Shown: piece by piece, positions 443 to 53,866 of the stretch
How positions within the stretch are numbered: the stretch's first letter is position 1
Layout: every line of letters starts with the position of its first letter
Source: Escherichia phage vB_EcoM_G10400
Sequence record: MK327937.1
DNA length: 64,000 nt
Direction: 5' to 3' (one strand)
The notes under the pieces: model-generated
What the model was told of the DNA's origin: nothing
Seen by the model: the letters and a program-made list of their open reading frames with translations, nothing else
Databases searched by the model: none
Made by a program: the position numbers and the translations under genes

Positions 443-2125
443 TTAAACCATTACAGTAAATCGACCAACTTTCTTCATTTGAAGATGCTGACCATATTCT
501 TGCGGGTCATGGTCTTTATGCGAAATTATAAAAACATTAGTGTTTTTCATTGAATTTATAATATTAGCTACACCTTTAATACCTTCGGCATCAAATGACC
601 CATCAAACACTTCATCAAGAATTAATGTACTAATACTAACACCAGATACGATAGAAGCAATATCACGCCAAGTAAATAAAAGAGCAATATCAATTCGTGC
701 CTTTTCACCTTCACTAAATGAAGCATAACTAAAATCTTCACGACCACGGGATTTAATTGTCTCATTAAATTCTTCATCTAATGTAAACACATAATCCGCT
801 TCCATTATTTTAAGATAATGGTTAATCTGCTTATTAAATAATGGAATGTACTTTTTAATAATAGCACCTTTAATACCAGAATCTTTGAGCATATCAGTCA
901 AAATTCCTCGGTGGTATTTTTCCATTACTAAATTAGTTTTTGTCTTAACAATTTTATCAAGTTCTTCTTGAAGCAATGCTATTTCATCAGCATGGTCAAT
1001 AAACTCGGATGATGCTTTTTCTATAGCTGCTTTAACTTTTTTAGCTTTATCTACTGTCGTGATTAGAGATTGCTTTTTATTGCGAATATCATTTGCCAAC
1101 GACTGCTGGGTTTTAATATTATCTCGGTATTCATCAACAAGAACTTTTAAATTATCACGGTGTGTTGAAAGCTGTTCAAACGAATGCGTACATTCAGAAA
1201 CTTTATCTTTAATTTTAGAAACAACTTTATCACCGGAACTTAATTGTGACAAACAGGTTGGACATAATCCACCTTCGTGATACATATTAATGACTTTATT
1301 ATACGAGTCAATTTTTGATTTAATTAAAACTGCTTCTTGACCGATTTTATTAAATGCATCAGTCGGGTCTTCATCTAAAACAATATTAACTAATCTTTCA
1401 TTAGCTTCTTCTATTTCCGATTTTAGCGTTCTAGCTTCTTTTGCCAAATCATCATACATATTTTGAAGACGAGTAAGGTTGTCACCCGTTAATTTTTTCT
1501 GGCGTTCAACGTTATCATTATATATTTTAATTTGTTGGATAATACTATCTTTTTTAACATCAAGCACTTGGTTCTGTGAGTTTAATTCACGTATTAGTGC
1601 TTTATTAAGCTTATCCATTTCAGCTAATGTTCCTACCTCAAGCAGGTCTTCCACAAGCTTTCTTCGCGCAGGGGTCGACAAACCCATGAAAGGGGTATAC
1701 CCTGCTGTACCAAGGACAACAATCTGCTTGAAACTGGCATATGACATTCCGATAAGCTGTTCAAATTCTGCTTGGAAATCTTTACTGCTGGCAGATTCAT
1801 TAAGACGTGTACCGTTAACGGTGATTTCAAAAACGTTCGGTTTTTGTCCTCTTTTGATATAGTACTTTTTCTCATCATATTCCATCCACAGTTCAACTAA
1901 AAGTTCTTTCTTATTTGTGCTGTTTATTAATTGACCTTTCTTTACATCACGAAATGGCTTGCCAAAAAGCCCAAATGTGATGGCTTCTAGCATAGTAGAC
2001 TTACCACCGCCATTTCGTCCAGTAATAAGAGTTTTTTGAACCTTATCTAATTGAATGTCAATAGGATTTCCACCTACTGACATTATATTTTGATACCTAA
2101 CTCGGTTTAGTTTAAAATTCTTCAC
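443..2125 (-). CDS. 46: Recombination endonuclease subunit gp46 (SbcC/Rad50-like ATPase)
   Basis: 560 aa ORF; N-terminal Walker A (GRNGGGKST), long central coiled coil, C-terminal ABC signature/Walker B region; sits directly downstream of gene 47 as in T4. Start codon appears to be GTG. Confidence 0.9.
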   Translation of the reverse strand: MKNFKLNRVRYQNIMSVGGNPIDIQLDKVQKTLITGRNGGGKSTMLEAITFGLFGKPFRDVKKGQLINSTNKKELLVELWMEYDEKKYYIKRGQKPNVFEITVNGTRLNESASSKDFQAEFEQLIGMSYASFKQIVVLGTAGYTPFMGLSTPARRKLVEDLLEVGTLAEMDKLNKALIRELNSQNQVLDVKKDSIIQQIKIYNDNVERQKKLTGDNLTRLQNMYDDLAKEARTLKSEIEEANERLVNIVLDEDPTDAFNKIGQEAVLIKSKIDSYNKVINMYHEGGLCPTCLSQLSSGDKVVSKIKDKVSECTHSFEQLSTHRDNLKVLVDEYRDNIKTQQSLANDIRNKKQSLITTVDKAKKVKAAIEKASSEFIDHADEIALLQEELDKIVKTKTNLVMEKYHRGILTDMLKDSGIKGAIIKKYIPLFNKQINHYLKIMEADYVFTLDEEFNETIKSRGREDFSYASFSEGEKARIDIALLFTWRDIASIVSGVSISTLILDEVFDGSFDAEGIKGVANIINSMKNTNVFIISHKDHDPQEYGQHLQMKKVGRFTVMV

Positions 2126-2385
2126 AAAAGATTCCTTTTAATGTATCTTTTAGACCATTCTATCATATCATCATAATCTAAAAAGTATTCATCAAATTCA
2201 GCCATGCAAACAACGCCTTGTGCTGTTTTTGATGTAATATAAATTATTCCAACATATCTAGAATCTTCTTCGGTGTAATCAATATTTGCTATGAATTCAT
2301 CATTAATGTCAAATGTCGAAAACTTCACAGTATGCATCCTTAATACAAGATACAGCCATATCTCGTAATGATTTAGGTGTGTCAT
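2122..2385 (-). CDS. Hypothetical small protein between genes 47 and 46
   Basis: 87 aa ORF in the sense orientation of the early transcription unit; overlaps its neighbour by 77 nt, so the true start may be internal. Confidence 0.4.
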   Translation of the reverse strand: MTHLNHYEIWLYLVLRMHTVKFSTFDINDEFIANIDYTEEDSRYVGIIYITSKTAQGVVCMAEFDEYFLDYDDMIEWSKRYIKRNLL

Positions 2386-2572
2386 TATCTAAAATGTTGA
2401 AGTTAAAAGATACAGCCCAGTCAGTGCAGACCGTGACCTTTTTAATACAATTATCTTCAACCTCTAGCGGTTCAAACCAATATTCAATAATTTCTTTATG
2501 ACCAATATCATCTTTTACTTCGCATTCAAAATGCTGACTCATCATAACATTTTTAAATTCATCAAAAGTCAT
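2309..2572 (-). CDS. Hypothetical small protein between genes 47 and 46
   Basis: 87 aa ORF; stop/start overlap with gene 47. Confidence 0.4.
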   Translation of the reverse strand: MTFDEFKNVMMSQHFECEVKDDIGHKEIIEYWFEPLEVEDNCIKKVTVCTDWAVSFNFNILDNDTPKSLRDMAVSCIKDAYCEVFDI

Positions 2573-3588
2573 TGTGTTGCCTCTACATATAGCTGATTCG
2601 CATATTGAATAAGTGCTTCACGGTCAGAATCAGTGATGTCTGGAATTGCATTAATGTATTCTTCCATCAACGTCTGAAGAGATTGAACTTCAACTTCTTC
2701 ACTGTCATCTGACTCGACAGAGTTATCAATCTTTGACACAACTCGTAATGAATGCACAACTTTTTCTAGTTCAGATTCGAACTTCGTTAGATTTTTGTCT
2801 ACTTCAGTTACTATAACACGTACTGATAGATTTGTAAAATCTTTATAGTCAATTTTTCCTTTAAATGGATAATGAATTCTACGATGCCAAGTAGTGTTGT
2901 TTGGAATAAATTCCATTCGTTCTGTTTCTGTATCAAACATCCAGAACCCACGAGGGTCATTCTCGTCACCTGCAGTTAGTGTCCATGGTGTCCCAATATA
3001 TCTGACGTTTGCAGCCTCAGAAATAGTATGGAAGTGACCAGACCACACTTCTTTATAAGTCTTAAGGAAATCAGGTTCAAGACCGTGAGATTTCATTCCT
3101 TTATAAAAATAAAATCCATTCAGTTCCCAGTGACCAACGCAAAAAGAAGCAGATGAAGTTTTGATGTGCTCAAGAATTTCACCAGTATTTTCTTCACACA
3201 TCCAAGGAATTAAATCAATTAAACATCCGTCAAAATCTACTGTAGTAGGCTTATCATATACTTTAACATTAGGATATTTAGCCAAAAGCTCAGTAGAAGC
3301 ATTTGGATGCATTACATTTTTGTAGTGGAGATCGTGATTTCCTACAATAGTATGTAATGTGATTCCAGCACCATCAAGCATTTGAACTATTTCACGGGCA
3401 AACTCCATAGTTTTATGCGTGATCGCTTTTCGCACATCAAAAATATCACCGTATTGAATCCATACCGTAATTCCATTTTTCTTAGAATATTCTATCGCTT
3501 GCTTAATTCCATCAATTTGAATACCGCGAATCCACTCATCATCGGCTTTAACGCCTAAATGCCAATCACCTAAATTTAAAATTTTCAT
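2569..3588 (-). CDS. 47: Recombination endonuclease subunit gp47 (Mre11/SbcD-like phosphoesterase)
   Basis: 339 aa; calcineurin-like phosphoesterase motifs (GDWHLG, GDIFD, GNHD, GHWE); paired with gp46. Confidence 0.9.
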   Translation of the reverse strand: MKILNLGDWHLGVKADDEWIRGIQIDGIKQAIEYSKKNGITVWIQYGDIFDVRKAITHKTMEFAREIVQMLDGAGITLHTIVGNHDLHYKNVMHPNASTELLAKYPNVKVYDKPTTVDFDGCLIDLIPWMCEENTGEILEHIKTSSASFCVGHWELNGFYFYKGMKSHGLEPDFLKTYKEVWSGHFHTISEAANVRYIGTPWTLTAGDENDPRGFWMFDTETERMEFIPNNTTWHRRIHYPFKGKIDYKDFTNLSVRVIVTEVDKNLTKFESELEKVVHSLRVVSKIDNSVESDDSEEVEVQSLQTLMEEYINAIPDITDSDREALIQYANQLYVEATQ

Positions 3589-3750
3589 ATATCAAGAACC
3601 GTCATTGAAATGCAAAATAAAATTAATGAAATAAATCCATCTGGAGTGCTAAAGAACCCAATCCAACATGCTCTGGTGAACAAATAAAACGCTAGAAAAA
3701 GTATCACATATCCAAGAAATATCATTATATCAAACTCCGTATAAAGCTAA

Positions 3751-30332: not shown

Positions 30333-30806
30333 TTATTTGAACGATTTAACGTACTGAATAGAACCTTTACTATTTACAAAGGCAATTTTACCATTTTTAT
30401 TATACATGGTAGCAGTACGTTGATAACCATAAGTTTGTTTACCAGATTGATAACCAACTAATGCGAAATTATCTTCACCCATTTTATTCTGTTTAGCGCG
30501 AATGCGTTCATGACCATGTGCCATAAGAACCTTAGCATCACCAGTTGCAATGGATCTACGAGTTTTTTCATCTTCAACTGTATTAACAAAGTCGTCAAAT
30601 GAATCAAATTTAGCATGAGATTTATTATACAGTTTTCCATCTACTGTATAATTATATCCCTGTACATCCATCTCAACTTCTGTACCATCATCCAATACAG
30701 CAGTGATTTTTTGACCTTTTTTAAATTTCAAAAGATCAGTAAAAGATTCAGCAATAATTTGAGAATTAATAGCTGCTTCAGTGATAAATTCTTGATATGT
30801 TTTCAT
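30333..30806 (-). CDS. Internal head protein candidate (IpII/IpIII-class)
   Basis: 157 aa; N-terminus MKTYQEFITEA is the conserved capsid-targeting sequence of T-even internal proteins; lysine-rich body. Confidence 0.65.
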   Translation of the reverse strand: MKTYQEFITEAAINSQIIAESFTDLLKFKKGQKITAVLDDGTEVEMDVQGYNYTVDGKLYNKSHAKFDSFDDFVNTVEDEKTRRSIATGDAKVLMAHGHERIRAKQNKMGEDNFALVGYQSGKQTYGYQRTATMYNKNGKIAFVNSKGSIQYVKSFK

Positions 30807-33502: not shown

Positions 33503-34055
33503 ATTTTTCTAATAATAAATCGCTTTCAAAATTGGGATTTTCTACGAATTTATCAAAAAGATCATCAACAATAGTTAAGATATTCTTTTTACTAAGAATA
33601 CGTTTATTTTCATGCTTCGTTTCAGAATCAACTATAAGAGTAAAGAAATATTTCTTGCCCTGAAATTTTACAGTAGTATCAATATAAAATAAATTTGACT
33701 TTTGTAAATTACGTTTAAACCATGTGTCACTTAAACTATAAATACCGAGATAATCATAATCGTCGTTTAAATAACATACTGTCCATTCAGGAGAAATGAA
33801 ATCAGTAAATTCAACATCAAAATCACACGTCAATGAATGAATTGATTCAATACTGTTAATAAGTATTCCAGGACGTATTAAAGACTTTTTACCTTTATAA
33901 AATCCAGAAAGACTTTCATCAGTTTCATATGAAGAACCCCAATAATAATTACGTCCTTCTGCCATACGTTTAAGAGCATTTAGTAATTGGTCTGGAACAT
34001 CAACCTGTCTTTGAAACTCTTCAAACATTGAATTGAAATCACTTTGCATTTTCAT
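33450..34055 (-). CDS. Hypothetical protein
   Basis: 201 aa ORF. Confidence 0.45.
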   Translation of the reverse strand: MKMQSDFNSMFEEFQRQVDVPDQLLNALKRMAEGRNYYWGSSYETDESLSGFYKGKKSLIRPGILINSIESIHSLTCDFDVEFTDFISPEWTVCYLNDDYDYLGIYSLSDTWFKRNLQKSNLFYIDTTVKFQGKKYFFTLIVDSETKHENKRILSKKNILTIVDDLFDKFVENPNFESDLLLEKFVKECREYVKTITIPSK

Positions 34056-34076
34056 TCCTATTTACTCCAAGTAATA

Positions 34077-34091
34077 GGGGCCCGAAGCCCC
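34077..34091 (-). terminator. UUCG-tetraloop hairpin
   Basis: Minus-strand RNA GGGGCUUCGGGCCCC; weak U-tract. Confidence 0.4.
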
Positions 34092-34097
34092 TTATCA

Positions 34098-34691
34098 TTA
34101 TTTCAGAGAATTAATATATTCCTGAACATCGGCAGAGGTAGTTTCAACCCCAGAAATATTACCATTAAAGGTTTCAACTCGAGCAAGAGTATCTTCAATA
34201 TCAACCTTAGTCAGTGCTGCAATTTCAACTACATCATCAGCAGTACTAATTCCAAGGGCATTCGCTGCACGAGTTTCACGGATATATTCCAATTTAACCG
34301 CAAGTTCTTGACGAGCATCATCTAACTCAACTACTTTCTTGGCGATTTCAATTCGCATTTCAGCATAACCGTCAGCCTTAGTAGTCAACTGCTCAGCTGT
34401 TCGACGATATAGTAAACCGAGTTTAGCATGCATTGTTACATCTTGACCTTCGGAAAGAAGCTTGCGAATTTCACGCTCTTTTGATTCGGCTTGCTTATTC
34501 TTTTCGACAATAAGTTCACGAATACGCTTTTCTTCATTAATAGATTTAACGGAAGCAGTTTTTAGATCTTTAATCTTATCAAGTAGTTTTGCTGCCGCAG
34601 CAGTATACTGTTCTTCAACAGATAGATTTTTAGCCATAGCAGAACCAAGTTTAGTGCGAATAAACTCAACAATTTTCTTCAGTGTGTTCAT
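34098..34691 (-). CDS. Coiled-coil protein
   Basis: 197 aa, largely alpha-helical; somewhat higher GC than its neighbours. Confidence 0.5.
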
Positions 34692-34704
34692 AGTATTTCC
34701 TTAG

Positions 34705-34750
34705 GTTGGTATAATTAGATAATATCACGTTTCTAATAGATTGTAAACTT
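34705..34750 (-). promoter_or_regulatory. Possible early promoter
   Basis: GTTTAC (plus 34743-34748) with TATAAT/TATTAT-like elements 17-20 nt downstream; overlaps the stop of the upstream ORF. Confidence 0.35.
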
Positions 34751-35084
34751 ATTCTTCGTCTAGCTCGTCGATAAAGGCGTTGATGGCCTCGATAACGGCA
34801 TCATTGATAGCTAATAAAATAAAATCATCGTCAGTACCTTTAGAAGATTCTAAAGCATTGATATATGCTTGGTTGGCGAGTTCCCAAGCCTTTTTAAAAT
34901 AAGGAGCTTCATCATCAGGACAAATATCCCGCACGCCTTCAAAGATACGTTTGGCATAATCTAACACCCATTGTACAGGCATGTTTTGAGAACGTTCGTT
35001 AAACTCTTTAAAGTCCTTAGATTCAAAAAGCTCTTCAGGATAATTATTTCTATTACAAAAAGCTTTGCTAAAATTACGTTTCAT
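34749..35084 (-). CDS. Hypothetical protein
   Basis: 111 aa ORF downstream of the promoter-like element at 35100-35145. Confidence 0.45.
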   Translation of the reverse strand: MKRNFSKAFCNRNNYPEELFESKDFKEFNERSQNMPVQWVLDYAKRIFEGVRDICPDDEAPYFKKAWELANQAYINALESSKGTDDDFILLAINDAVIEAINAFIDELDEE

Positions 35085-35099
35085 AATGTTTTCCTCATT

Positions 35100-35145
35100 T
35101 GTATAGGCTCATAATATCTCAATCATGAGCCTATGTAAACTTATT
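35100..35145 (-). promoter_or_regulatory. Probable early promoter with a palindrome around the -10
   Basis: GTTTAC (plus 35135-35140); 9 bp inverted repeat taggctcat/atgagccta (35104-35133) brackets the -10 region. Confidence 0.45.
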
Positions 35146-35416
35146 TCATATTATTGAAATATTCTTCTGCGATTTCATCGTTATCATGGTAAACTTTAGA
35201 AGACAGTTTAACATAACCTTCAGCAGTGAACATGTTAATCACAACCTTTACAGTATACCACTGACCATCTTCATTACCCATTACTGCGTAAGTTTCAAAC
35301 ATCGGATGATCAGGACCGATAACTTTAATATCATTCACTGTACGACCGAAATCTTCTGAAACACATTTCATAAAGAAGTTGAACAGTTCGCCGTAATTAT
35401 CCATTTCGTTCTCCAA
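35141..35416 (-). CDS. Hypothetical protein
   Basis: 91 aa ORF downstream of the early promoter at 35441-35495. Confidence 0.45.
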   Translation of the reverse strand: MENEMDNYGELFNFFMKCVSEDFGRTVNDIKVIGPDHPMFETYAVMGNEDGQWYTVKVVINMFTAEGYVKLSSKVYHDNDEIAEEYFNNMK

Positions 35417-35440
35417 GTTGTTTTCTGTATCAGTAGTTGA

Positions 35441-35495
35441 TAGTTGTATAGTACCATGGAAGAACAGGGATGTAAACAGTTTTGTGAAAAAATTT
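35441..35495 (-). promoter_or_regulatory. T4-type early promoter
   Basis: -35 GTTTAC (plus 35472-35477), -10 block tatagtacca (35447-35456), A/T-rich upstream element. Confidence 0.6.
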
Positions 35496-35606
35496 TTAAA
35501 AAGTTTTAGGGAATTCTAGGGTCAGGAGGGGCAATTAAAAGATAGGATAATATATTATAAAGGGTAGAAACTAAATGATGCCTAGAGAGGCCCGGAAAGG
35601 CCTAGA

Positions 35607-35641
35607 TACCAAAAAGCCCCAACCTTTTGGTCGGGGCTAAG
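35607..35641 (-). terminator. Intrinsic terminator (repeat copy A)
   Basis: Minus-strand RNA AGCCCCGACC-AAAA-GGUUGGGGCU followed by UUUUUGGUA; 35 bp element repeated at 36166-36200. Confidence 0.6.
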
Positions 35642-35645
35642 AATG

Positions 35646-36119
35646 TTATTTGATTTGTTTAGCAGACCAAATGCGGTCTTTAATAATTTTTTGGATGTCT
35701 TCAACATACTCAAGAGAGTGAGCATGTGGGTTATCTTTGAAACTATAAGCACGAGCTAGCTTTTGGCCTTCAGTTTTGATTACTAAAAGCTCTTTAAGGA
35801 TAGCTTCATATTTAGAGATAATTCCTTTAACAATATTTTTTTCTTGTGCAGCTTTAGGATCTGCTTTAGGAGCAGGTTTACCTGAAGCCTTTGCAAAAGC
35901 AGCGCCAGTAGCAACTAAACTTTTCCAGGCCATACTAACTGCATTTCCCGTAAATCCTTCCGCTTTCATGTCGCGTGCGAACTGGAATCGCGATTCATCA
36001 GAAGCATCTTTATAAGAATATTTACCCGCTGCAATGGCTGCTTTTGCGACAGCTTGAATTTCGGTGCTAGATGCTTCATTTAACACCGCTTCATTTAAAA
36101 ATTGAGTATATGATTTCAT
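35646..36119 (-). CDS. Internal head protein candidate (divergent capsid-targeting sequence)
   Basis: 157 aa; N-terminus MKSYTQFLNEA resembles the internal-protein targeting sequence; a TATAAATA late promoter lies just upstream; alanine/lysine-rich body. Confidence 0.6.
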   Translation of the reverse strand: MKSYTQFLNEAVLNEASSTEIQAVAKAAIAAGKYSYKDASDESRFQFARDMKAEGFTGNAVSMAWKSLVATGAAFAKASGKPAPKADPKAAQEKNIVKGIISKYEAILKELLVIKTEGQKLARAYSFKDNPHAHSLEYVEDIQKIIKDRIWSAKQIK

Positions 36120-36159
36120 CTTATTTCCTGTTTTAATTTGTAGATATTTAATATACTAA

Positions 36160-36167
36160 TATTTATA
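36160..36167 (-). promoter_or_regulatory. Late promoter upstream of the internal-protein candidate
   Basis: TATAAATA on the minus strand, about 40 nt upstream of the ATG at 36119. Confidence 0.55.
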
Positions 36168-36200
36168 CCAAAAAGCCCCAACCTTTCGGTCGGGGCTAAG
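36166..36200 (-). terminator. Intrinsic terminator (repeat copy B; end of the tRNA/stable-RNA operon)
   Basis: Same 35 bp element with one substitution (GAAA loop), followed by a U-tract. Confidence 0.6.
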
Positions 36201-36510
36201 CCTTGCGGCAACCTTGTCGGGGTTCCACCTGCTAAGGCAAGTGTTTGTACGAAACGCCGGGATTCGAACCCGGTTATTAAGCAGTTGACGCTACTCAATA
36301 TTTTTAAAAGGCCATATCTCGACCATATCCGAACGTTCCGTCAAAAACACTACTCGGCTTACGGCAAAGATATTTCCTCGAATCGATAATTCGGTGCGCC
36401 GTTTCTGCTGTGATGTAAGAGGGCATCAATAAACGCAAAGATTATTAACGCAATTCCTTACTCAGGGAACATCAGTCCGACGACTTGCCGGTAGCGACCC
36501 GGCTTCTTGT
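36201..36510 (-). ncRNA. Candidate small stable RNA region (T4 species 1/2-like)
   Basis: About 310 nt with no ORF between the operon terminator and tRNA-Arg; contains a tRNA-like T-arm (CCGGGTTCGAATCCCGG on the minus strand, about 36257-36273) and extended stem pairing (ccttgc…gcaagg). Boundaries not determined. Confidence 0.4.
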
Positions 36511-36511
36511 C

Positions 36512-36587
36512 TGGTCGAGGCAGTAGGGATCGAACCTACGACCCAGGACTTAGAAGGTCCTTGCTCTTCCTTCTGAGCTATGCCCCG
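36512..36587 (-). tRNA. tRNA-Arg (anticodon UCU)
   Basis: Hand-folded cloverleaf: acceptor CGGGGCA/TGCCTCG, anticodon arm AGGAC-CTTCTAA-GTCCT, T-arm GGGTTCGATCC; CCA encoded. Confidence 0.85.
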
Positions 36588-36590
36588 TAA

Positions 36591-37256
36591 TTAAAATTTC
36601 ATTTTTCGACCTTTAAACCATCCTTCTGGAATTGGGTCAGTTTTCTTAATACGTTTAGAAACTTTTTCATCTAATGAATGAATCCACATCATGCCAAATT
36701 GGGAATTCTTTTCACCTTGTTGGTGTTTATTTCTGGCGTGAGATTCTTTCATTTTATTAATAGTTTCAGGAGTATGGGTCTTACCCAAGAAAGATTTAGT
36801 ATTTAAAAATTTCTCTCTATACTTAGGATTATCCCAAAGCTGTTTAAACCTTTCTGAACCCATTTTACGATATTTTTCTTTAAGGTCTGGGTCGTTCTCA
36901 AATCTGGTTTTAAAAGCGGCAGCTCCTTTTAAGGAAGCTTCTTTCTTTTTATCCAAATATTCTTTAGTGTTTAAATGGTCCCAACCACCTTCACCACCTA
37001 ATTTCAAATTATAAACATCAGAGCGCTTTAAAAACTCTTCAGTCACAATATTCTTTTCTGACTCAAACATAGAGGTTTTATCGTCAAAGAACTCTAATAT
37101 TTCTTTAGAAAAATTTTCTATACCATACTTATCTTGGGCTCTTTTTAATAATTTACCAGAACCCATATATCCATCATCTAAATTTTCGGTAGAATGAGCG
37201 CCTATATAGATTTTATTATTAATTTTATTTGTTATTTTATAAATGTAATGGAACAT
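36591..37256 (-). CDS. segB: GIY-YIG homing endonuclease SegB
   Basis: 221 aa; N-terminal GIY-YIG motif (YIYKITNKINNKIYIG); embedded in the tRNA cluster, as T4 segB is. Confidence 0.8.
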   Translation of the reverse strand: MFHYIYKITNKINNKIYIGAHSTENLDDGYMGSGKLLKRAQDKYGIENFSKEILEFFDDKTSMFESEKNIVTEEFLKRSDVYNLKLGGEGGWDHLNTKEYLDKKKEASLKGAAAFKTRFENDPDLKEKYRKMGSERFKQLWDNPKYREKFLNTKSFLGKTHTPETINKMKESHARNKHQQGEKNSQFGMMWIHSLDEKVSKRIKKTDPIPEGWFKGRKMKF

Positions 37257-37297
37257 AAATATCTCCTATTTCTAAGAGTATTTATGTTCTCAAAATA

Positions 37298-37369
37298 TGG
37301 CCCTGGGTGGAATTGAACCACCATCTGGCGATTATGAGTCGCTTGCTTGAACCTTCCAGCTACAGGGCC
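37298..37369 (-). tRNA. tRNA-Ile (gene anticodon CAU; would score as Met)
   Basis: Hand-folded: acceptor GGCCCTG/CAGGGCC, anticodon loop CTCATAA, T-arm GGTGGTTCAATTCCACC. Ile assignment follows the T4 tRNA set. Confidence 0.75.
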
Positions 37370-37375
37370 TTGATA

Positions 37376-37448
37376 TGCTGATTGACGGAATCGAACCGCC
37401 GACGTCCTCATTACAAGTGAGGTGCTCTACCTACTGAGCTAAATCAGC
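37376..37448 (-). tRNA. tRNA-Thr (anticodon UGU)
   Basis: Hand-folded: acceptor GCTGATT/AATCAGC, anticodon arm CCTCA-CTTGTAA-TGAGG, T-loop TTCGATT. Confidence 0.85.
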
Positions 37449-37455
37449 GAAATTA

Positions 37456-37542
37456 CGGAGGCGATAGGATTTGAACCTATGAGTCGCCGGAGCGACTGCC
37501 GGTTTTCAAGACCGGTGCATTAAACCACTCTGCCACGCCTCC
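37456..37542 (-). tRNA. tRNA-Ser (anticodon UGA)
   Basis: Hand-folded: acceptor GGAGGCG/CGCCTCC, anticodon arm CCGGT-CTTGAAA-ACCGG, long variable arm, T-loop TTCAAAT. Confidence 0.85.
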
Positions 37543-37544
37543 AG

Positions 37545-37618
37545 TCTCCGCGGCAGGATTTGAACCTACGACATTCTGCTCCCAAAGCAGATGCTCTACC
37601 AAACTGAGCTACACGGAG
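37545..37618 (-). tRNA. tRNA-Pro (anticodon UGG)
   Basis: Hand-folded: acceptor CTCCGTG/CGCGGAG, anticodon arm TCTGC-TTTGGGA-GCAGA, T-arm GTAGGTTCAAATCCTGC. Confidence 0.85.
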
Positions 37619-37630
37619 TAAATTAAATTT

Positions 37631-37702
<72 letters not shown>

Positions 37703-37708
37703 AAACTT

Positions 37709-37795
37709 TGGTACGAGAAGTGGGACTCGAACCCACAAGGAAATCATTCCGCAGCATTTTAAGTGCTGTGCCTTTACCAATTTGACCATTCTCGC
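37709..37795 (-). tRNA. tRNA-Leu (anticodon UAA)
   Basis: Hand-folded: acceptor GCGAGAA/TTCTCGT, anticodon arm CAGCA-CTTAAAA-TGCTG, long variable arm, T-arm GTGGGTTCGAGTCCCAC; CCA encoded. Confidence 0.85.
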
Positions 37796-37801
37796 GCTAT
37801 A

Positions 37802-38434
37802 TTATTTATTACGTGAAAAAGACTGTTCTATCAATTCTGGACACTTTCGTTCTATCCATTTTCTAGCTTTTTGTGGGCTTATACCTATTATTTTAGCAGC
37901 TTTACTAACCCATCCAAATTTAGAATAATCGATTTTAACTAATTCTTCGTAAATTTCATCAGTTAAAATCTTTTCATTAATATTTACCAGTAAATGATAT
38001 AATTTATTATCATTAGCAATTTTAATGAATCTTTTATAGTTTCCGCCTTTACTTAAACCTAATGAAGTAATTGCAGATGATATAGTAGCCGAATTTAATA
38101 GTGCGTTTAAAATTTCTTCATCACTAACATTATAACGCTTTTTATTATTTTTAATATTTTTACCAGCAAAAGTATCAGTTTGCGAATGGCAATTTGGACA
38201 TAATAATCTTAAATTTGATTTAAGATGATTTTTGTTATTTCCATCAATATGGTCTAATTGCAGAACAATATGCTTATTTTGCCATTTTGAAATTTTACAA
38301 ATTGCACACTCATATGGAAAAATATTTTCTTTTATTATTTTGTCTTTCAGCTTTCCTGTACTAAAATTTGGATGTTTTCCTTCAAAAATTTCAGCTAATT
38401 TAGTATCCATAATATGATTCCCAATTATTAACAA
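37802..38434 (-). CDS. HNH family homing endonuclease
   Basis: 210 aa; HNH core (…LQLDHIDGNNKNHLKSNLRLLCPNCHSQTD…) with flanking Cys pairs; stop codon 6 nt from the 5' end of tRNA-Leu. True start may be the internal ATG at 38410. Confidence 0.7.
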   Translation of the reverse strand: MLIIGNHIMDTKLAEIFEGKHPNFSTGKLKDKIIKENIFPYECAICKISKWQNKHIVLQLDHIDGNNKNHLKSNLRLLCPNCHSQTDTFAGKNIKNNKKRYNVSDEEILNALLNSATISSAITSLGLSKGGNYKRFIKIANDNKLYHLLVNINEKILTDEIYEELVKIDYSKFGWVSKAAKIIGISPQKARKWIERKCPELIEQSFSRNK

Positions 38435-38520
38435 AGGCTCTCAAACAAGAACCCTTGATGATAGAGGGTATTAATCAGTGCGGTATGAGTTAATAATAAC
38501 AAATAATTCTTAAAGCATAT

Positions 38521-38814
38521 TTACCATTTATGATAATACATATTTACGATGCATTCAAGGCCCAAAGGATTCCTGAAAATATCATATTCAAGAGGACCTT
38601 TTTCTGTTTCAATAAAGAAATCAAAATTTACTGTATTAAATTTACGGTCTTCCTTCACTAATTTAACTTGGGAAGATGAACGGTCAACATAAACCTTTTC
38701 AACTTCAAAACACGTTAAAACGCCATAATCATCAATCAAGGCTTTAGCCGCGTCTTGATCATATTTATATCCATTTTCAATGGACGATACTTTTGCATAA
38801 AGAATCATTATCAC
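38521..38814 (-). CDS. Hypothetical protein
   Basis: 97 aa ORF. Confidence 0.4.
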   Translation of the reverse strand: MIMILYAKVSSIENGYKYDQDAAKALIDDYGVLTCFEVEKVYVDRSSSQVKLVKEDRKFNTVNFDFFIETEKGPLEYDIFRNPLGLECIVNMYYHKW

Positions 38815-39191
38815 ACTCCGTAGTCTATCTTGACCAATCTACCTTTGTAGTAGCCAAAGTTCTTTGGAAAGGCATCATACTCAAAGAAATCACGGTCAAG
38901 CGTTCTGCATTCATCACCATCAACATCATTATAGAGCTTTTGCAAATCAGATTTAAAAAGCTCCTTATCCTCAACTGGCTCTGCTTTGTGCATCACAACC
39001 ATGAGACCAAATCTGTTTGAGTATGCTATTGGGCATAGGTATTTGTTATCATACCCCTTCCACTGACCTTCTGTAAGATTGCTGAGCATACCCTGCACGA
39101 AGTGTTTCCATGTCTTGGGGATAGGGAACTTAATAGCATACTTATGTGTTAGTAGTACCCATCTGGTTCCACCCGATTTAATTAATTTCAT
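38811..39191 (-). CDS. Hypothetical protein
   Basis: 126 aa ORF. Confidence 0.45.
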   Translation of the reverse strand: MKLIKSGGTRWVLLTHKYAIKFPIPKTWKHFVQGMLSNLTEGQWKGYDNKYLCPIAYSNRFGLMVVMHKAEPVEDKELFKSDLQKLYNDVDGDECRTLDRDFFEYDAFPKNFGYYKGRLVKIDYGV

Positions 39192-39265
39192 AGTCTCAGC
39201 TACCTCAATATTAATTTAAGCAATATCATTCCTGTAAGGTAGTACTTTAGCATAAAGAATCATTG

Positions 39266-39676
39266 TCAGCCTCTATCAACGATAGCATGAGTATGGGCAT
39301 TTACGATTTGCCACCAGTCGAAACGATTGAAACCATAATCTGGTTTATTTTCATTTTCTTTAATGATATCACGCAGCTTATCTTCTGTTTCAGCATACGC
39401 AATTAAATCATCATATCCACCACAAGGGTAATAATTATCACCTGCGAATAAAAGAAAATTTACCTTAGATGGATTTACATAATAATGGTCTTTAGGATAT
39501 TTAGTTCCTCTCCAATCAGTTACTTCAACATAACGGTAAGAAAATCCATTTTTACTTTCAATCCAACTCCACGCTTCAAAAGGAGTATTAAAAACTTTAT
39601 CAGGTATTAAATTACCTTCAAAATGAGAAGGATTTGCATAATCCCCAGCATAAACATAATATTCGTTAATACTCAT
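39266..39676 (-). CDS. Hypothetical protein
   Basis: 136 aa ORF, aromatic-rich. Confidence 0.45.
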   Translation of the reverse strand: MSINEYYVYAGDYANPSHFEGNLIPDKVFNTPFEAWSWIESKNGFSYRYVEVTDWRGTKYPKDHYYVNPSKVNFLLFAGDNYYPCGGYDDLIAYAETEDKLRDIIKENENKPDYGFNRFDWWQIVNAHTHAIVDRG

Positions 39677-39862
39677 TTATTCACCTTTAGAAATTTTATC
39701 CATAACGATAGCAATTAAACCAATTAAAAATGCTACTACAAGTGAAAACGCATTTTCTGCTGTAGTTAATAATCCGCATATAAATCCAACAAACATTGAA
39801 AAACTAAAAGCAGAAGCAGAAATTGCAATAGCAACATTTCGAATTAATTCACAGCGTTTCAT
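39677..39862 (-). CDS. Small membrane protein
   Basis: 61 aa with two hydrophobic helices; downstream of the early promoter at 39885-39935. Confidence 0.4.
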   Translation of the reverse strand: MKRCELIRNVAIAISASAFSFSMFVGFICGLLTTAENAFSLVVAFLIGLIAIVMDKISKGE

Positions 39863-39884
39863 TTTATTCTCCTCAGTAGTTGAT

Positions 39885-39935
39885 AGGGTAATAGTATCAC
39901 AACTAAAACCCTATGTAAACAACTTTGTGAAAAAT
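39885..39935 (-). promoter_or_regulatory. T4-type early promoter
   Basis: -35 GTTTAC (plus 39915-39920), -10 block atagtatcac; inverted repeat taggg…cccta spans the -10. Confidence 0.55.
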
Positions 39936-39938
39936 TTA

Positions 39939-40223
39939 TTACAAAAGATTTTTAGCAATAATTTTAAGCTGAGCTACTGAAATATGCTTGGCTTTAAACA
40001 AAGCAGTTTCTTCAGCAGGGGAGATAATGATTGTAGCACCATCTTTCTTAGCGGACCATCCATCACCCAGGTAAACAGTACCTTTAACTTCTTCGCCATC
40101 AACCAGGCTAATCATCGGTTTACCTTCACGTCCTTTGTTTGCTTTAATAACTTCAGAAGTAAGGGTCGCTTCAGTCAAAGTAGAAGCGTTAGTCGTTGAA
40201 GTGAATTCTTGATAAGTTTTCAT
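39939..40223 (-). CDS. Internal head protein at the ipI locus (divergent from T4 IPI)
   Basis: 94 aa; N-terminus MKTYQEF is the capsid-targeting sequence; sits immediately before 57B, where T4 has ipI; the body does not match T4 IPI as I recall it. Confidence 0.6.
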   Translation of the reverse strand: MKTYQEFTSTTNASTLTEATLTSEVIKANKGREGKPMISLVDGEEVKGTVYLGDGWSAKKDGATIIISPAEETALFKAKHISVAQLKIIAKNLL

Positions 40224-40244
40224 TTTATTTTCCTAATTAATTTT

Positions 40245-40295
40245 GATGAGGTAATAGTATCACTACCTCATCAGCATGTAAACAACTTTGTGAAA
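40245..40295 (-). promoter_or_regulatory. T4-type early promoter (ipI locus) with a palindrome around the -10
   Basis: -35 GTTTAC (plus 40278-40283), -10 block taatagtatcac; 9 bp inverted repeat gatgaggta/tacctcatc (40245-40271). Confidence 0.55.
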
Positions 40296-40992
<697 letters not shown>

Positions 40993-51800: not shown

Positions 51801-51939
51801 TAAATTAATGAGTCCTTTATTTGATGCATCTGGAACAACATTTGCGCAATTTAGAGATTTAGTTAATAAACGTCTAAAAGATAATATAGGAAATCCAAGA
51901 GACCCTGAAAATCCAACACAGGTTAAAATAGATGAATGA
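48841..51939 (+). CDS. 7: Baseplate wedge protein gp7
   Basis: 1032 aa; length and order as T4. Confidence 0.9.
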   Translation: MTVKAPSVTSLRISKLSANQVQVRWDDVGANFYYFVEIAETKSNSGENLPSNQYRWINLGYTANNSFFFDDADPLTSYVIRVATAAQDFEQSDWIYTEEFETFATNAYTFQNMIEMQLANKFIQEKFTLNNSDYVNFNNDTIMAALMNESFQFSPSYADVSSISNFIIGENEYHEIQGSIQQVCKDINRVYLMESEGILYLFERYQPVVKVSNDKGQTWKAVKLFNDRVGYPLSKTVYYQSANTTYVLGYDKIFYGRKSTDVRWSADDVRFSSQDITFAKLGDQLHLGFDVEIFATYATLPANVYRIAEAITCTDDYIYVVARDKVRYIKTSNAPIDSDPLSPTYSERLFEPDTMTITGNPKAVCYKMDSIGDKVFALIIGEVETLNANPRTSKIIDSADKGIYVLNQDTKTWKRVFGNTEEERRRIQPGYANMSTDGKLVSLSSSNFKFLSDNVVNDPETAAKYQLIGAVKYEFPREWLADKHYHMMAFIADEKSDWETFTPQPMKYYAEPFFNWSKKSNTRCWINNSDKAVVVYADLKYTKVIENIPETSPDRLVHEYWDDGDCTIVMPNVKFTGFKKYASGMLFYKSSGEIISYYDFNYRVRDTVEIIWKPTEVFLKAFLQNQERETPWSPEEERGLADPDLRPLIGTMMPDSYLLQDSNFEAFCEAYIQYLSDGYGTQYNNLRNLIRNQYPREEHAWEYLWSEIYKRNIYLNADKRDAVARFFESRSYDFYSTKGIEASYKFLFKVLYNEEVEIEIESGAGTEYDVIIQSDSLTEDLVGQTIYTATGRCNVTYIERSYSNGKLQWTVTIHNLLGRLIAGQEVKAERLPGFEGEIIRGVKGKDLLQNNIDYINRSRSYYVMKIKSNLPSSRWKSDVIRFVHPVGFGFIAITLLTMFINVGLTLKHTETIINKYKNYKWDSGLPTEYADRVAKLTPTGEIEHDSVTGEAIYEPGPMAGVEYPLPDDYNAENNNSIFQGQLPSERRKLMSPLFDASGTTFAQFRDLVNKRLKDNIGNPRDPENPTQVKIDE

Positions 51940-52936
51940 TTCAAGTGTTATCTATCGTGCGATAGTTACTTCAAAATTTAGAACAGAAAAAATGTTGAAT
52001 TTTTATAATTCAATTGGAAGTGGTCCGGATAAAAACACTATCTTTATCACATTTGGAAGATCAGAACCGTGGTCATCAAATGAAAATGAGGTGGGCTTTG
52101 CCCCACCTTATCCTACCGATTCTGTATTAGGTGTAACTGACATGTGGACTCATATGATGGGAACAGTAAAAGTTCTTCCATCAATGCTTGATGCAGTTAT
52201 TCCTCGTCGAGATTGGGGAGATACTAGATATCCGGATCCATACACATTTAGAATTAACGATATTGTAGTGTGTAACTCAGCTCCTTACAACGCTACTGAA
52301 TCAGGCGCGGGATGGTTAGTGTATCGCTGTTTAGATGTTCCTGATACTGGAATGTGCTCAATAGCATCTTTAACTAATAAGGATGAATGCCTTAAGTTAG
52401 GTGGAAAATGGACTCCTTCTGCTAGGTCAATGACTCCTCCTGAAGGTCGAGGAGATGCTGAAGGAACAATTGAACCTGGGGATGGATATGTTTGGGAATA
52501 TTTATTTGAGATTCCGCCTGATGTATCTATAAATAGATGTACGAATGAATACATCGTGGTTCCTTGGCCTGAGGAATTAAAAGAAGACCCGACTAGATGG
52601 GGGTATGAAGATAATCTCACTTGGCAACAAGATGATTTTGGATTAATTTACCGTGTTAAGGCAAATACTATCCGTTTTAAAGCATATTTAGATTCAGTTT
52701 ATTTTCCTGAAGCTGCATTGCCGGGAAATAAAGGATTTAGACAAATATCAATAATTACGAATCCTCTTGAAGCTAAAGCTCATCCAAATGACCCAAATGT
52801 TAAAGCTGAAAAGGATTATTATGATCCGGAAGATTTAATGAGGCATTCGGGCGAAATGATTTATATGGAAAATAGGCCACCTATTATTATGGCAATGGAT
52901 CAGACAGAAGAAATCAATATTCTGTTTACATTTTAA
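51932..52936 (+). CDS. 8: Baseplate wedge protein gp8
   Basis: 334 aa; followed by a terminator hairpin. Confidence 0.9.
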   Translation: MNDSSVIYRAIVTSKFRTEKMLNFYNSIGSGPDKNTIFITFGRSEPWSSNENEVGFAPPYPTDSVLGVTDMWTHMMGTVKVLPSMLDAVIPRRDWGDTRYPDPYTFRINDIVVCNSAPYNATESGAGWLVYRCLDVPDTGMCSIASLTNKDECLKLGGKWTPSARSMTPPEGRGDAEGTIEPGDGYVWEYLFEIPPDVSINRCTNEYIVVPWPEELKEDPTRWGYEDNLTWQQDDFGLIYRVKANTIRFKAYLDSVYFPEAALPGNKGFRQISIITNPLEAKAHPNDPNVKAEKDYYDPEDLMRHSGEMIYMENRPPIIMAMDQTEEINILFTF

Positions 52937-52941
52937 ATTAA

Positions 52942-52966
52942 GGGAGCCCATGGGCTCCCTTTTTCT
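52942..52966 (+). terminator. Intrinsic terminator after gene 8
   Basis: Perfect palindrome gggagccc-at-gggctccc followed by TTTTTCTTT. Confidence 0.65.
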
Positions 52967-52967
52967 T

Positions 52968-52975
52968 TATAAATA
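52968..52975 (+). promoter_or_regulatory. Late promoter for gene 9
   Basis: TATAAATA about 25 nt upstream of the gene 9 ATG, directly after the gene 8 terminator. Confidence 0.65.
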
Positions 52976-52999: not shown

Positions 53000-53866
53000 A
53001 TGTTCATTCAAGAACCAAAGAAATTGATTGATACCGGCGAAATTGGTAACGCTTCTACTGGTGATATCTTATTCGACGGTGGTAATAAAATTAATAGTGA
53101 TTTTAACGCAATTTATAACGCGTTTGGCGATCAACGTAAAATGGCAGTAGCAAATGGCACTGGAGCAGATGGTCAAATTATCCATGCTACTGGATATTAT
53201 CAAAAACACTCTATTGCAGAGTATGCAACTCCAGTAAAAGTTGGCACTAGGCATGATATTGATACCTCTACTGTAGGTGTTAAAGTTATCATTGAAAGAG
53301 GCGAACTTGGCGACTGCGTTGAATTTATTAACTCAAATGGATCAATATCAGTTACTAATCCTTTAACGATTCAAGCTATTGATTCAATTAAAGGCGTTTC
53401 AGGTAATTTAGTAGTAACTAGTCCATATAGTAAAGTTACCTTACGTTGTATTTCATCTGATAATTCTACGTCGGTTTGGAATTATTCTATTGAAAGTATG
53501 TTTGGTCAAAAGGAATCACCTGCTGAAGGTACATGGAATATTTCTACATCTGGATCAGTTGACATTCCACTATTTCATCGCACTGAATACAATATGGCTA
53601 AATTGCTAGTTACGTGCCAATCAGTAGATGGAAGAAAAATTAAAACAGCAGAAATAAATATTCTTGTGGATACTGTTAATTCAGAAGTTATTTCTTCTGA
53701 GTATGCTGTCATGCGAGTTGGAAATGAAACAGAAGAAGACGAAATCGCTAATATTGCATTTAGTATTAAAGAAAATTACGTAACGGCGACTATAAGTTCT
53801 TCAACTGTCGGTATGAGAGCAGCAGTTAAAGTTATCGCTACGCAGAAAATCGGGGTGGCTCAATAA
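53000..53866 (+). CDS. 9: Baseplate protein gp9 (long tail-fibre socket)
   Basis: 288 aa; own TATAAATA late promoter. Confidence 0.9.
   Translation: MFIQEPKKLIDTGEIGNASTGDILFDGGNKINSDFNAIYNAFGDQRKMAVANGTGADGQIIHATGYYQKHSIAEYATPVKVGTRHDIDTSTVGVKVIIERGELGDCVEFINSNGSISVTNPLTIQAIDSIKGVSGNLVVTSPYSKVTLRCISSDNSTSVWNYSIESMFGQKESPAEGTWNISTSGSVDIPLFHRTEYNMAKLLVTCQSVDGRKIKTAEINILVDTVNSEVISSEYAVMRVGNETEEDEIANIAFSIKENYVTATISSSTVGMRAAVKVIATQKIGVAQ

Follow-up and report, generated by a model that had tools for sequence, protein, structure and literature searches.

A repeat-bracketed late gene for a probable internal protein marks a variable cassette site between rnaC and e.8 in T4-like phages

Internal proteins (IPs) enter the cell ahead of all other phage proteins. 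In T4, Ip1, Ip2 and Ip3 each inhibit their own variant of the type IV restriction enzyme GmrSD (PMC12373910), and the work of Repoila et al. (1994), as summarised in PMC2839356 and PMC12373910, recognises two polymorphic IP loci in T-even phages, ipI between 57B and the tRNA genes and ipII/ipIII between denV and e. Arbiol et al. (2010) describe IP genes as confined to these two loci and absent elsewhere in T-even genomes (PMC2839356). Modular shuffling has been ascribed to promoter-early and promoter-middle stem-loop cassettes (PeSL and PmSL; Arbiol 2010, PMC2839356; Comeau 2014, PMC4122927), and the excision/integration model put forward for PeSLs is a precedent for the arrangement described here (PMC2839356). 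We analysed a 64,000-nucleotide stretch of Escherichia phage vB_EcoM_G10400 (record MK327937.1; hereafter the window), a Tequatrovirus (T4-like) genome region in which a single gene, here called IPx, lies between two copies of a 36-nt terminator at the rnaC-e.8 site. We judge it likely that this is a small hypervariable cassette site holding one self-contained late unit, that the IPx product is injected, and that the terminators serve as portable homology. The apparent novelty lies in a third IP locus and in a linker that joins a GC-rich intrinsic terminator to a late promoter; the principle of polymorphic loci and shuffling is known, and an older mention is possible.

A repeat search of the window finds the two copies to be identical at 35 of 36 positions (97%), the sole mismatch being T at 35628 versus C at 36187 within the string CCTTT[T/C]GG. 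The first-pass annotation of this DNA had described a 35-bp repeat with one mismatch; the repeat and the single mismatch stand, but the element has an extra base on its 5' side and the variable base had been placed one position early. A 28-nt core, allowing up to three mismatches, occurs at just these two sites in the 64 kb, where 100 shuffles give an expectation of 0.00. In the minus-strand RNA both copies form a GC-rich 10-bp stem capped by a tetraloop (GAAA in the proximal copy, AAAA in the distal one), with UUUUU after it; the folding energies of the proximal and distal copies are -24.9 and -21.7 kcal/mol, with z-scores, in the same order, of -3.7 and -3.2. None of 200 shuffles is as stable, and a terminator scan also calls both copies. 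These results bear out the hairpin and U-tract proposed earlier for each copy. The repeat also takes in CTT 5' of the hairpin and GGTAT 3' of it. Both copies have the form expected of an intrinsic terminator, a GC-rich hairpin directly before a U-tract at the end of a transcription unit, and are predicted to act as such: the proximal copy lies 48 nt past the rnaC homologue and the distal copy 4 nt past the IPx stop codon. The T4 record X03016 annotates the homologous single copy as "pot. stem-loop structure; pot. terminator", 52 nt downstream of species 1 RNA, in agreement with the first-pass view that the upstream copy is the terminator of the tRNA/stable-RNA operon.

Past the proximal copy the minus strand reads GGGGCTTTTTGG-TATAAATA, the first three bases of the promoter being the last three of the repeat. 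The octamer TATAAATA is a perfect match to the T4 late promoter and is marked as a late promoter in the annotation of SA20RB, and one gene together with this promoter is indeed what the two copies enclose, as had been claimed (Table 1). The same hairpin and TATAAATA junction stands ahead of the gene in phiD1, KRT47, SA20RB and the compared sequences L004-L006 and L009-L013, and an IPx-like gene in Klebsiella phage KP1 is likewise preceded by a junction of this kind. At the third pair of the stem, Tequatrovirus has C-G and Mosigvirus G-C, with both copies alike in most genomes; this compensatory change, shared by the two copies, argues for selection on the hairpin and for some concerted evolution.

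In these respects the element resembles the PeSL and PmSL cassettes. A composite of terminator and promoter flanks variable open reading frames (ORFs), a single copy is found at a relative's empty site, and the proposed excision or integration between copies would carry transcriptional insulation along with the gene. Of the features that define a PeSL, we find the terminator-type stem-loop and the copies that flank inserted, deleted or replaced ORFs, with one copy at empty sites, but a sigma70 scan detects no early promoter inside the repeat, so the IPx element is an analogue of the PeSL and not a member of that class. Its promoter is the 8-bp late TATAAATA, whereas that of a PeSL is sigma70-like and early and that of a PmSL is Mot-dependent and middle; and it is present in two or three copies at one site, as against dozens of PeSL/PmSL copies across the hyperplastic region. 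Late promoters go unmentioned in PMC2839356 and PMC4122927.

A second composite of terminator and late promoter is present in the window at 52939-52975 (+), at the junction of gene 8 (51932-52936) and gene 9 (53000-53866), and reads GGGAGCCC-at-GGGCTCCC, then T5, ctt and TATAAATA. The window holds 12 TATAAATA sites, and a strong hairpin lies directly upstream at two of them, the IPx locus and this junction. The hairpin, T-run and TATAAATA within a few bases of one another make the IPx element comparable to the T4 gene 8/9 junction, an ordinary design in T4 late regions; the latter, however, is single-copy, sits between conserved essential genes and brackets no variable cassette.

Comparison with relatives shows that the content of the site is variable. 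T4 has no gene between e.8 and rnaC and exactly one copy of the element, with the same sequences on either side of it as enclose the pair of copies in the window, so that the window differs from T4 by a 559-bp unit comprising a late promoter, a gene and one terminator. The same scar-free, one-copy junction is found in PST, RB6, Sf24, SV76, pSe_SNUABM_01, SHFML-26 and ELT1, which belong to several Tequatrovirus species, and all eight empty sites examined keep exactly one terminator copy and no remnant. IPx (157 aa) stands alone in the window, phiD1 and SA20RB; a different gene, IPy (187 aa, MKTYAEFLTEA...), stands alone in RB14 and G3F7; and IPx is followed by IPy in KRT47, L005, L007 and L011. 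Mosigvirus-type contigs carry other combinations, either a DUF7338 membrane protein with a 205-aa IP-like gene (IP205), each preceded by a hairpin-TATAAATA junction, or IPx with DUF7338. The cassette variation among T4-like relatives that the first-pass annotation had anticipated is thus found, and with T4 and seven further phages empty, the gene and both repeats are not conserved across all relatives.

These layouts are common. With a 1.1-kb query around the IPx locus, matches are obtained in 703 phage records, among which Yersinia phage phiD1 ranks first at 97.9%; tblastn finds IPx in 511 phage records and IPy in 165. The T4 empty junction is covered over at least 80% of the query in 194 records; the 115-nt query merges two half-matches at filled sites, and the frequency of empty sites is therefore estimated from a sample of 14 of these 194 rows, half of which (7/14) are single-piece and hence empty, corresponding to roughly 15% of T-even records. 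Metagenome contigs repeat the IPx-only, IPy-only and IPx+IPy layouts. A metagenome scan with a 20-nt hairpin core returns mostly unrelated terminators and a few T-even contigs, which have the known layouts with the exception of L131. That contig, divergent and T4-like, holds four genes between the stable-RNA region and e.8 (1640-3750), among them one IP-like gene (…MLTYAEFLNRN…VLTE|A) that has its own TATAAATA and lies upstream of the rnaC-tail/terminator sequence.

Neighbour-joining trees of the left flank (rnaD/rnaC) and of the right flank (spacer and e.8) both show empty sites interspersed with IPx, IPy and IPx+IPy genomes, which indicates that the content of the site has altered repeatedly and independently of its flanks. 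The cassette has a G+C content of 38.0%, against 34.8 ± 3.3%; base composition was considered as a sign of foreign origin and gives none, the cassette not being atypical. Like a lambdoid moron, the unit is an autonomous transcription unit between genes that are adjacent in T4. Moron insertion, in contrast, is thought to be illegitimate, with no conserved flanking motifs and often an odd base composition, while the IPx cassette has homologous repeats at its boundaries and ordinary G+C.

The boundaries themselves are informative. All cassette boundaries examined fall within the terminator hairpin or its U-tract, and when the hairpin copies are tabulated, GGGGCTTTTT (...GGTTGGGGCTTTTT) is followed by one of three alternative tails: gGTATAAATA, which leads into the IPx promoter; agtttgaatcac, which leads into the IPy leader; or ggtatctaggcc (ggtatctagg), which leads into the spacer ahead of e.8. 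The type of tail is not tied to the copy, in that every hairpin copy can bear each of the three, and in the tandem IPx+IPy genomes the junction between the genes is a terminator copy bearing the IPy tail. A second shared module comprises promoter, leader and capsid-targeting sequence: IPx of L010 matches the 205-aa gene of L009 over about 75 nt, from TATAAATA to codon 15, and the two genes are otherwise unrelated. The comparisons thus far establish, at the level of predicted features, a self-contained unit, a polymorphism bounded within the terminator and repeated change of content.

The arrangement appears to be old. In Mosigvirus the position is taken by IPx homologues of about 72-74% identity. 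KP1, a Jiaodavirus, encodes a 177-aa IPx relative (MKFKEFLAEA...) straight after its tRNAs; a different hairpin, U5 and TATAAATA lie ahead of this gene, and behind it come an unrelated terminator and then an early promoter and gene resembling those of e.8. The KP1 and Mosigvirus layouts argue that the architecture of terminator, late promoter, IP gene and terminator is old, and the sequence identity of the two terminators is a trait of the Tequatrovirus/Mosigvirus lineage. Since homologues are found at the same position in both Mosigvirus and Jiaodavirus, the empty site of T4 is likelier to be a loss than the window is to be a recent gain, and it is most simply explained as loss by recombination between the repeats. 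The first-pass annotation had read the gene as a cassette inserted or exchanged by recombination between terminator repeats; the variable content and the boundaries within the terminator agree with this, but loss in T4 is likelier than insertion here, and the repeats are putative crossover substrates.

In T4 the leader of the internal proteins is a capsid-targeting sequence that the prohead protease (gene product 21, gp21) removes after L/I-x-E. The description of this leader is said to go back to Mullaney and Black in 1996. The N-terminus of IPx, MKSYTQFLNE|AVLNE|A, resembles such a sequence and contains two L-x-E prohead-protease motifs, which we read from the translation as L8-N9-E10|A11 and L13-N14-E15|A16. 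MKSYTQFLNEA aligns with MKTYQEFIAEA of T4 IPII and IPIII and with MKTFKEF of IPI, with M1, K2 and F7 invariant, a fit that upholds the earlier description of the gene as internal-protein-like. The capsid-targeting motif is present in all IPx homologues compared; in these, a conserved N-domain (residues ~15-80) is joined through a Pro/Lys/Ala-rich linker to a C-terminal helical part that varies. Judged by what sets internal proteins apart, IPx has the leader resembling MKTYQEFIAE and the cleavage motif; its late synthesis is suggested by TATAAATA and by an upstream terminator expected to stop early read-through; and it behaves as a non-essential, variable gene, being absent from T4, PST, RB6 and others and replaced in RB14 and Mosigvirus. 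On these sequence features, IPx is a probable capsid-packaged, injected internal protein, and a function for it is suggested by likeness to T4 Ip1-3 alone.

A start-codon scan of the window finds the full leader pattern in just three genes: the ipI homologue (40223..39939), a member of the internal virion protein family (30806..30333) and IPx; two further matches share MKSY alone. The second of these, at 30333-30806 (-), encodes a 157-aa protein that starts with MKTYQEFITEA and has matches to DUF7412 and to phrog_3155, "internal virion protein"; this is a further IP gene, probably at the classical denV-e locus, and is distinct from T4 IPII and IPIII. The ipI homologue (minus strand) is bracketed by two copies of a ~50-nt early-promoter motif, at 39869-39938 and 40224-40313, of the form tttcacaaagttgtttaca...gtgatactattacc, which resembles the classical linker of early promoter and AT-rich stem-loop, and it is thus a second, different repeat-bracketed IP gene in the window.

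Relative to the classical IP loci, the rnaC-e.8 site is similar in that it holds small non-essential genes with an MK[ST]Y..F[IL].E leader, whose number and identity vary among close relatives, and in that repeated regulatory motifs, the proposed mediators of shuffling, lie between the genes. It differs in position and in its proteins, which belong to phrog_2280 and are unrelated to IPI-III except for the leader. The linker differs too: at the classical loci it consists of a T4 early promoter and a weak AT-rich stem-loop, and at the IPx locus of a late promoter that adjoins a strong, GC-rich intrinsic terminator. T4 and PST, the phages compared by Arbiol's group, are both empty at the rnaC-e.8 site.

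We propose the following scheme, in which each step is a prediction. The proximal hairpin and U5 would end the transcripts of the tRNAs and stable RNAs, TATAAATA 2 nt past that U-tract would drive IPx late in infection, and the distal hairpin and U5 would end the IPx transcript ahead of the e.8 early promoter. The MKSYTQFLNE leader would direct IPx into the prohead scaffold core, where cleavage after L-x-E by the gp21 protease would yield the mature protein; this would be injected together with the DNA and may then disarm a host defence, for example a GmrSD-type restriction enzyme, by analogy with T4. Recombination between the terminator copies would excise the cassette and leave one copy, as in T4; cassettes would be inserted or stacked by the same reaction running backwards, or by unequal exchange in mixed infections. 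From the features described above we infer termination in vivo, late-only transcription, packaging, cleavage and injection of IPx, and use of the 36-nt repeats as crossover substrates. T4 is known to recombine readily at short homologies (PMC9391042). We speculate that the adjacent SegB supplies the initiating breaks: tRNA-Arg lies about 310 bp from the proximal terminator and segB about 400 bp from the cassette, and SegB cuts tRNA genes including tRNA-Arg and brings about nearly 100% inheritance of the T4 tRNA region and its flanks (PMC2330249).

A more ambitious form of this proposal, which we regard as doubtful, takes hairpin-U5-TATAAATA to be the late-promoter counterpart of the PeSL, a dedicated portable linker at a third, hitherto unrecognised IP locus in Tevenvirinae whose cassettes leave as circles and return at the terminator of the tRNA operon by way of SegB breaks, and counts the phrog_2280 proteins IPx, IPy and IP205 as a new anti-defence family, injected and with targets unlike those of Ip1-3.

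Several observations weigh against the cassette proposal, in whole or in part. Exchange during co-infection needs just the rnaC and e.8 flanks, so the comparisons place the terminators as boundaries and only as candidate crossover substrates. The IPy cassette ends in a different, AT-rich hairpin that has only GGGCTTTTTGGTATC in common with the main terminator, and full-length terminator repeats are therefore not needed for every event; the GGGCTTTTTGGTATCTAGG that follows this hairpin is common to the main element, which places the right-hand junction of IPy in the 3' stem or U-tract. In L008 (3780-3893), the DUF7338 gene after IPx is cut to its first ~17 nt and last ~60 nt, a loss of a neighbouring gene that is an internal deletion without terminator involvement. 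The two terminators of KP1 are not repeats of one another, and the neighbour-joining trees of the flanks are short and carry no support values. In RB69 (Mosigvirus, AY303349; L018 2351-3566) the rnaC-to-e.8 block has 90-100% nucleotide identity to RB14 and the sequence outside about 40%, so that the transferred segment is larger than the cassette. On the protein side, IPx shows no detectable similarity to IPI-III past its ~11-residue leader, BLASTP of IPx against IPy finds the leader alone, and the lack of a fold match (see below) means that no target or function can be assigned to IPx.

Several of these points are shared with the best of the alternatives, which we consider unlikely: that the terminators are regulatory punctuation, alike through copying or homogenisation in an ancestor, and that homologous recombination in the long flanks, perhaps stimulated by SegB breaks, swaps the alleles. 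The RB69 block is what such swapping would produce, as is a KP1 site with the same architecture and no repeated terminators; segB lies close by, and SegB, with its cutting and co-inheritance of the tRNA region (PMC2330249), also promotes amplification in that region (PMC13096335). Swapping of flanks does not, however, readily account for eight of eight empty sites that retain one terminator copy and no scar, for a tandem IPx+IPy junction that is itself a terminator copy with an exchanged tail, or for content interspersed on both flank trees, which puts breakpoints between flank and cassette, where the homology sits in the terminator. The RB69 block is a recent inter-genus transfer followed by decay, and IPy in this phage is frameshifted into two annotated ORFs, ORF148c and ORF149c. 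Repeat-mediated and flank-mediated exchange are not mutually exclusive, and probably both operate.

A rather improbable alternative concerns the protein: IPx may be an ordinary late gene whose leader resembles a capsid-targeting sequence by chance, or may go unexpressed, and would then be neither packaged nor injected. Besides the absence of similarity to IPI-III past residues 1-11, the annotation of IPx agrees with this, in that the protein is "hypothetical" in every row listed among the 511 encoding records and PHROGs places IPx, IPy and the 205-aa protein together in phrog_2280, function unknown. Pfam gives no domain for IPx. Homologues among 5.8 billion proteins fall into 13 clusters, all from T4-like phage and none informatively named, and in the Silas 2025 supplements that name ip4-ip10 the protein leader strings that we searched for are absent. 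An AlphaFold2 model from a 9-sequence alignment is all-helical and of moderate confidence only (predicted local distance difference test, pLDDT, 73; predicted template modelling score, pTM, 0.40), and a Foldseek search of it against the PDB gives nothing below E = 2. Chance resemblance is difficult to reconcile, however, with a leader pattern, M-K-[ST]-[YF]-x-[EQ]-F-[LI]-x-E-[AS], that is retained in IPx, IPy, IP205 and the KP1 homologue despite divergence of the remainder, and that in the window is confined in full to known or likely internal proteins; and an intact IPx ORF with a perfect late promoter and a Shine-Dalgarno sequence is kept across three genera. That the repeat is a coincidence of independently evolved terminators or an assembly artefact can be dismissed, since GC-rich hairpins with T-runs are generally common but 35/36 identity that includes the non-stem flanks is not expected by chance, and hundreds of genomes sequenced independently, as well as metagenome contigs, have the duplicated layout.

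On our preferred reading, of a late cassette encoding an injected protein, IPx and IPy are candidates for new anti-defence functions, being widespread (511 and 165 records) yet unannotated. The rows listed for both are hypothetical or nameless throughout, and screens for "ip" genes by annotation, or at the two known loci, would therefore miss them. They may help to account for differences in host range among therapeutic T4-like phages, and one gene, two 36-nt repeats and clean empty alleles would make a simple natural system for repeat-driven gain and loss in a virulent phage.

The features of the locus are collected in Table 1. The genes around IPx all lie on the minus strand and follow one another, in the order of transcription from high to low coordinates, as the tRNAs with segB, tRNA-Arg, the rnaD and rnaC homologues, the IPx cassette and e.8; the upstream tRNA cluster consists of seven tRNA genes, with segB among them. 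An Rfam scan of the locus matches the tRNAs alone, with no family for rnaC, rnaD or the hairpin.

Table 1. Features of the IPx locus and its surroundings; coordinates are those of the window.
Feature	Coordinates	Strand	Remarks
tRNA-Arg	36587..36512	-	directly beside the rnaD homologue
rnaC and rnaD homologues	36248..36511	-	final part of the transcription unit closed by the proximal terminator
rnaD homologue	about 36393-36511	-	coordinates moved over from the T4 annotation by alignment offset
rnaC homologue	about 36248-36386	-	coordinates moved over from the T4 annotation by alignment offset
Proximal 36-nt repeat copy	36165..36200	-	stem 36197..36174, GAAA loop, U-tract 36173..36169
T4-type late promoter TATAAATA	36167..36160	-	2 nt past the proximal U-tract, 40 nt upstream of the IPx ATG
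Shine-Dalgarno AGGAAA	36124..36129	-	4 nt ahead of the ATG; read from the sequence
IPx, 157 aa	36119..35646	-	ORF, starts MKSYTQFLNEA
Distal 36-nt repeat copy	35606..35641	-	stem 35638..35615, AAAA loop; predicted terminator of the IPx late transcript
Conserved distal spacer	35417..35605	-	identical sequence trails the single terminator in T4
e.8 early promoter TTTACA-17-TACTAT	35476..35448	-	inside the distal spacer; annotated in SA20RB
e.8 homologue	35404..35141	-	conserved right-hand flank of the cassette site

Just past the distal terminator, at 35575-35600 and at the same spot in relatives, lies a conserved palindromic segment, CTAGGCCTTTCC-NNN-CCTCTCTAGG, whose central NNN varies by phage (ggg, aga, ttg or aaa). 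Farther upstream in the direction of transcription, an ORF at 37802-38434 (-) with an HNH-type motif (...CPNCHSQTD...) stands directly upstream of tRNA-Leu, at the place where T4 has tRNA-Gln. ARAGORN finds no tRNA-Gln over positions 34000-40000 of the window, and the ORF probably encodes a free-standing homing endonuclease that has taken the place of a tRNA gene or displaced it.

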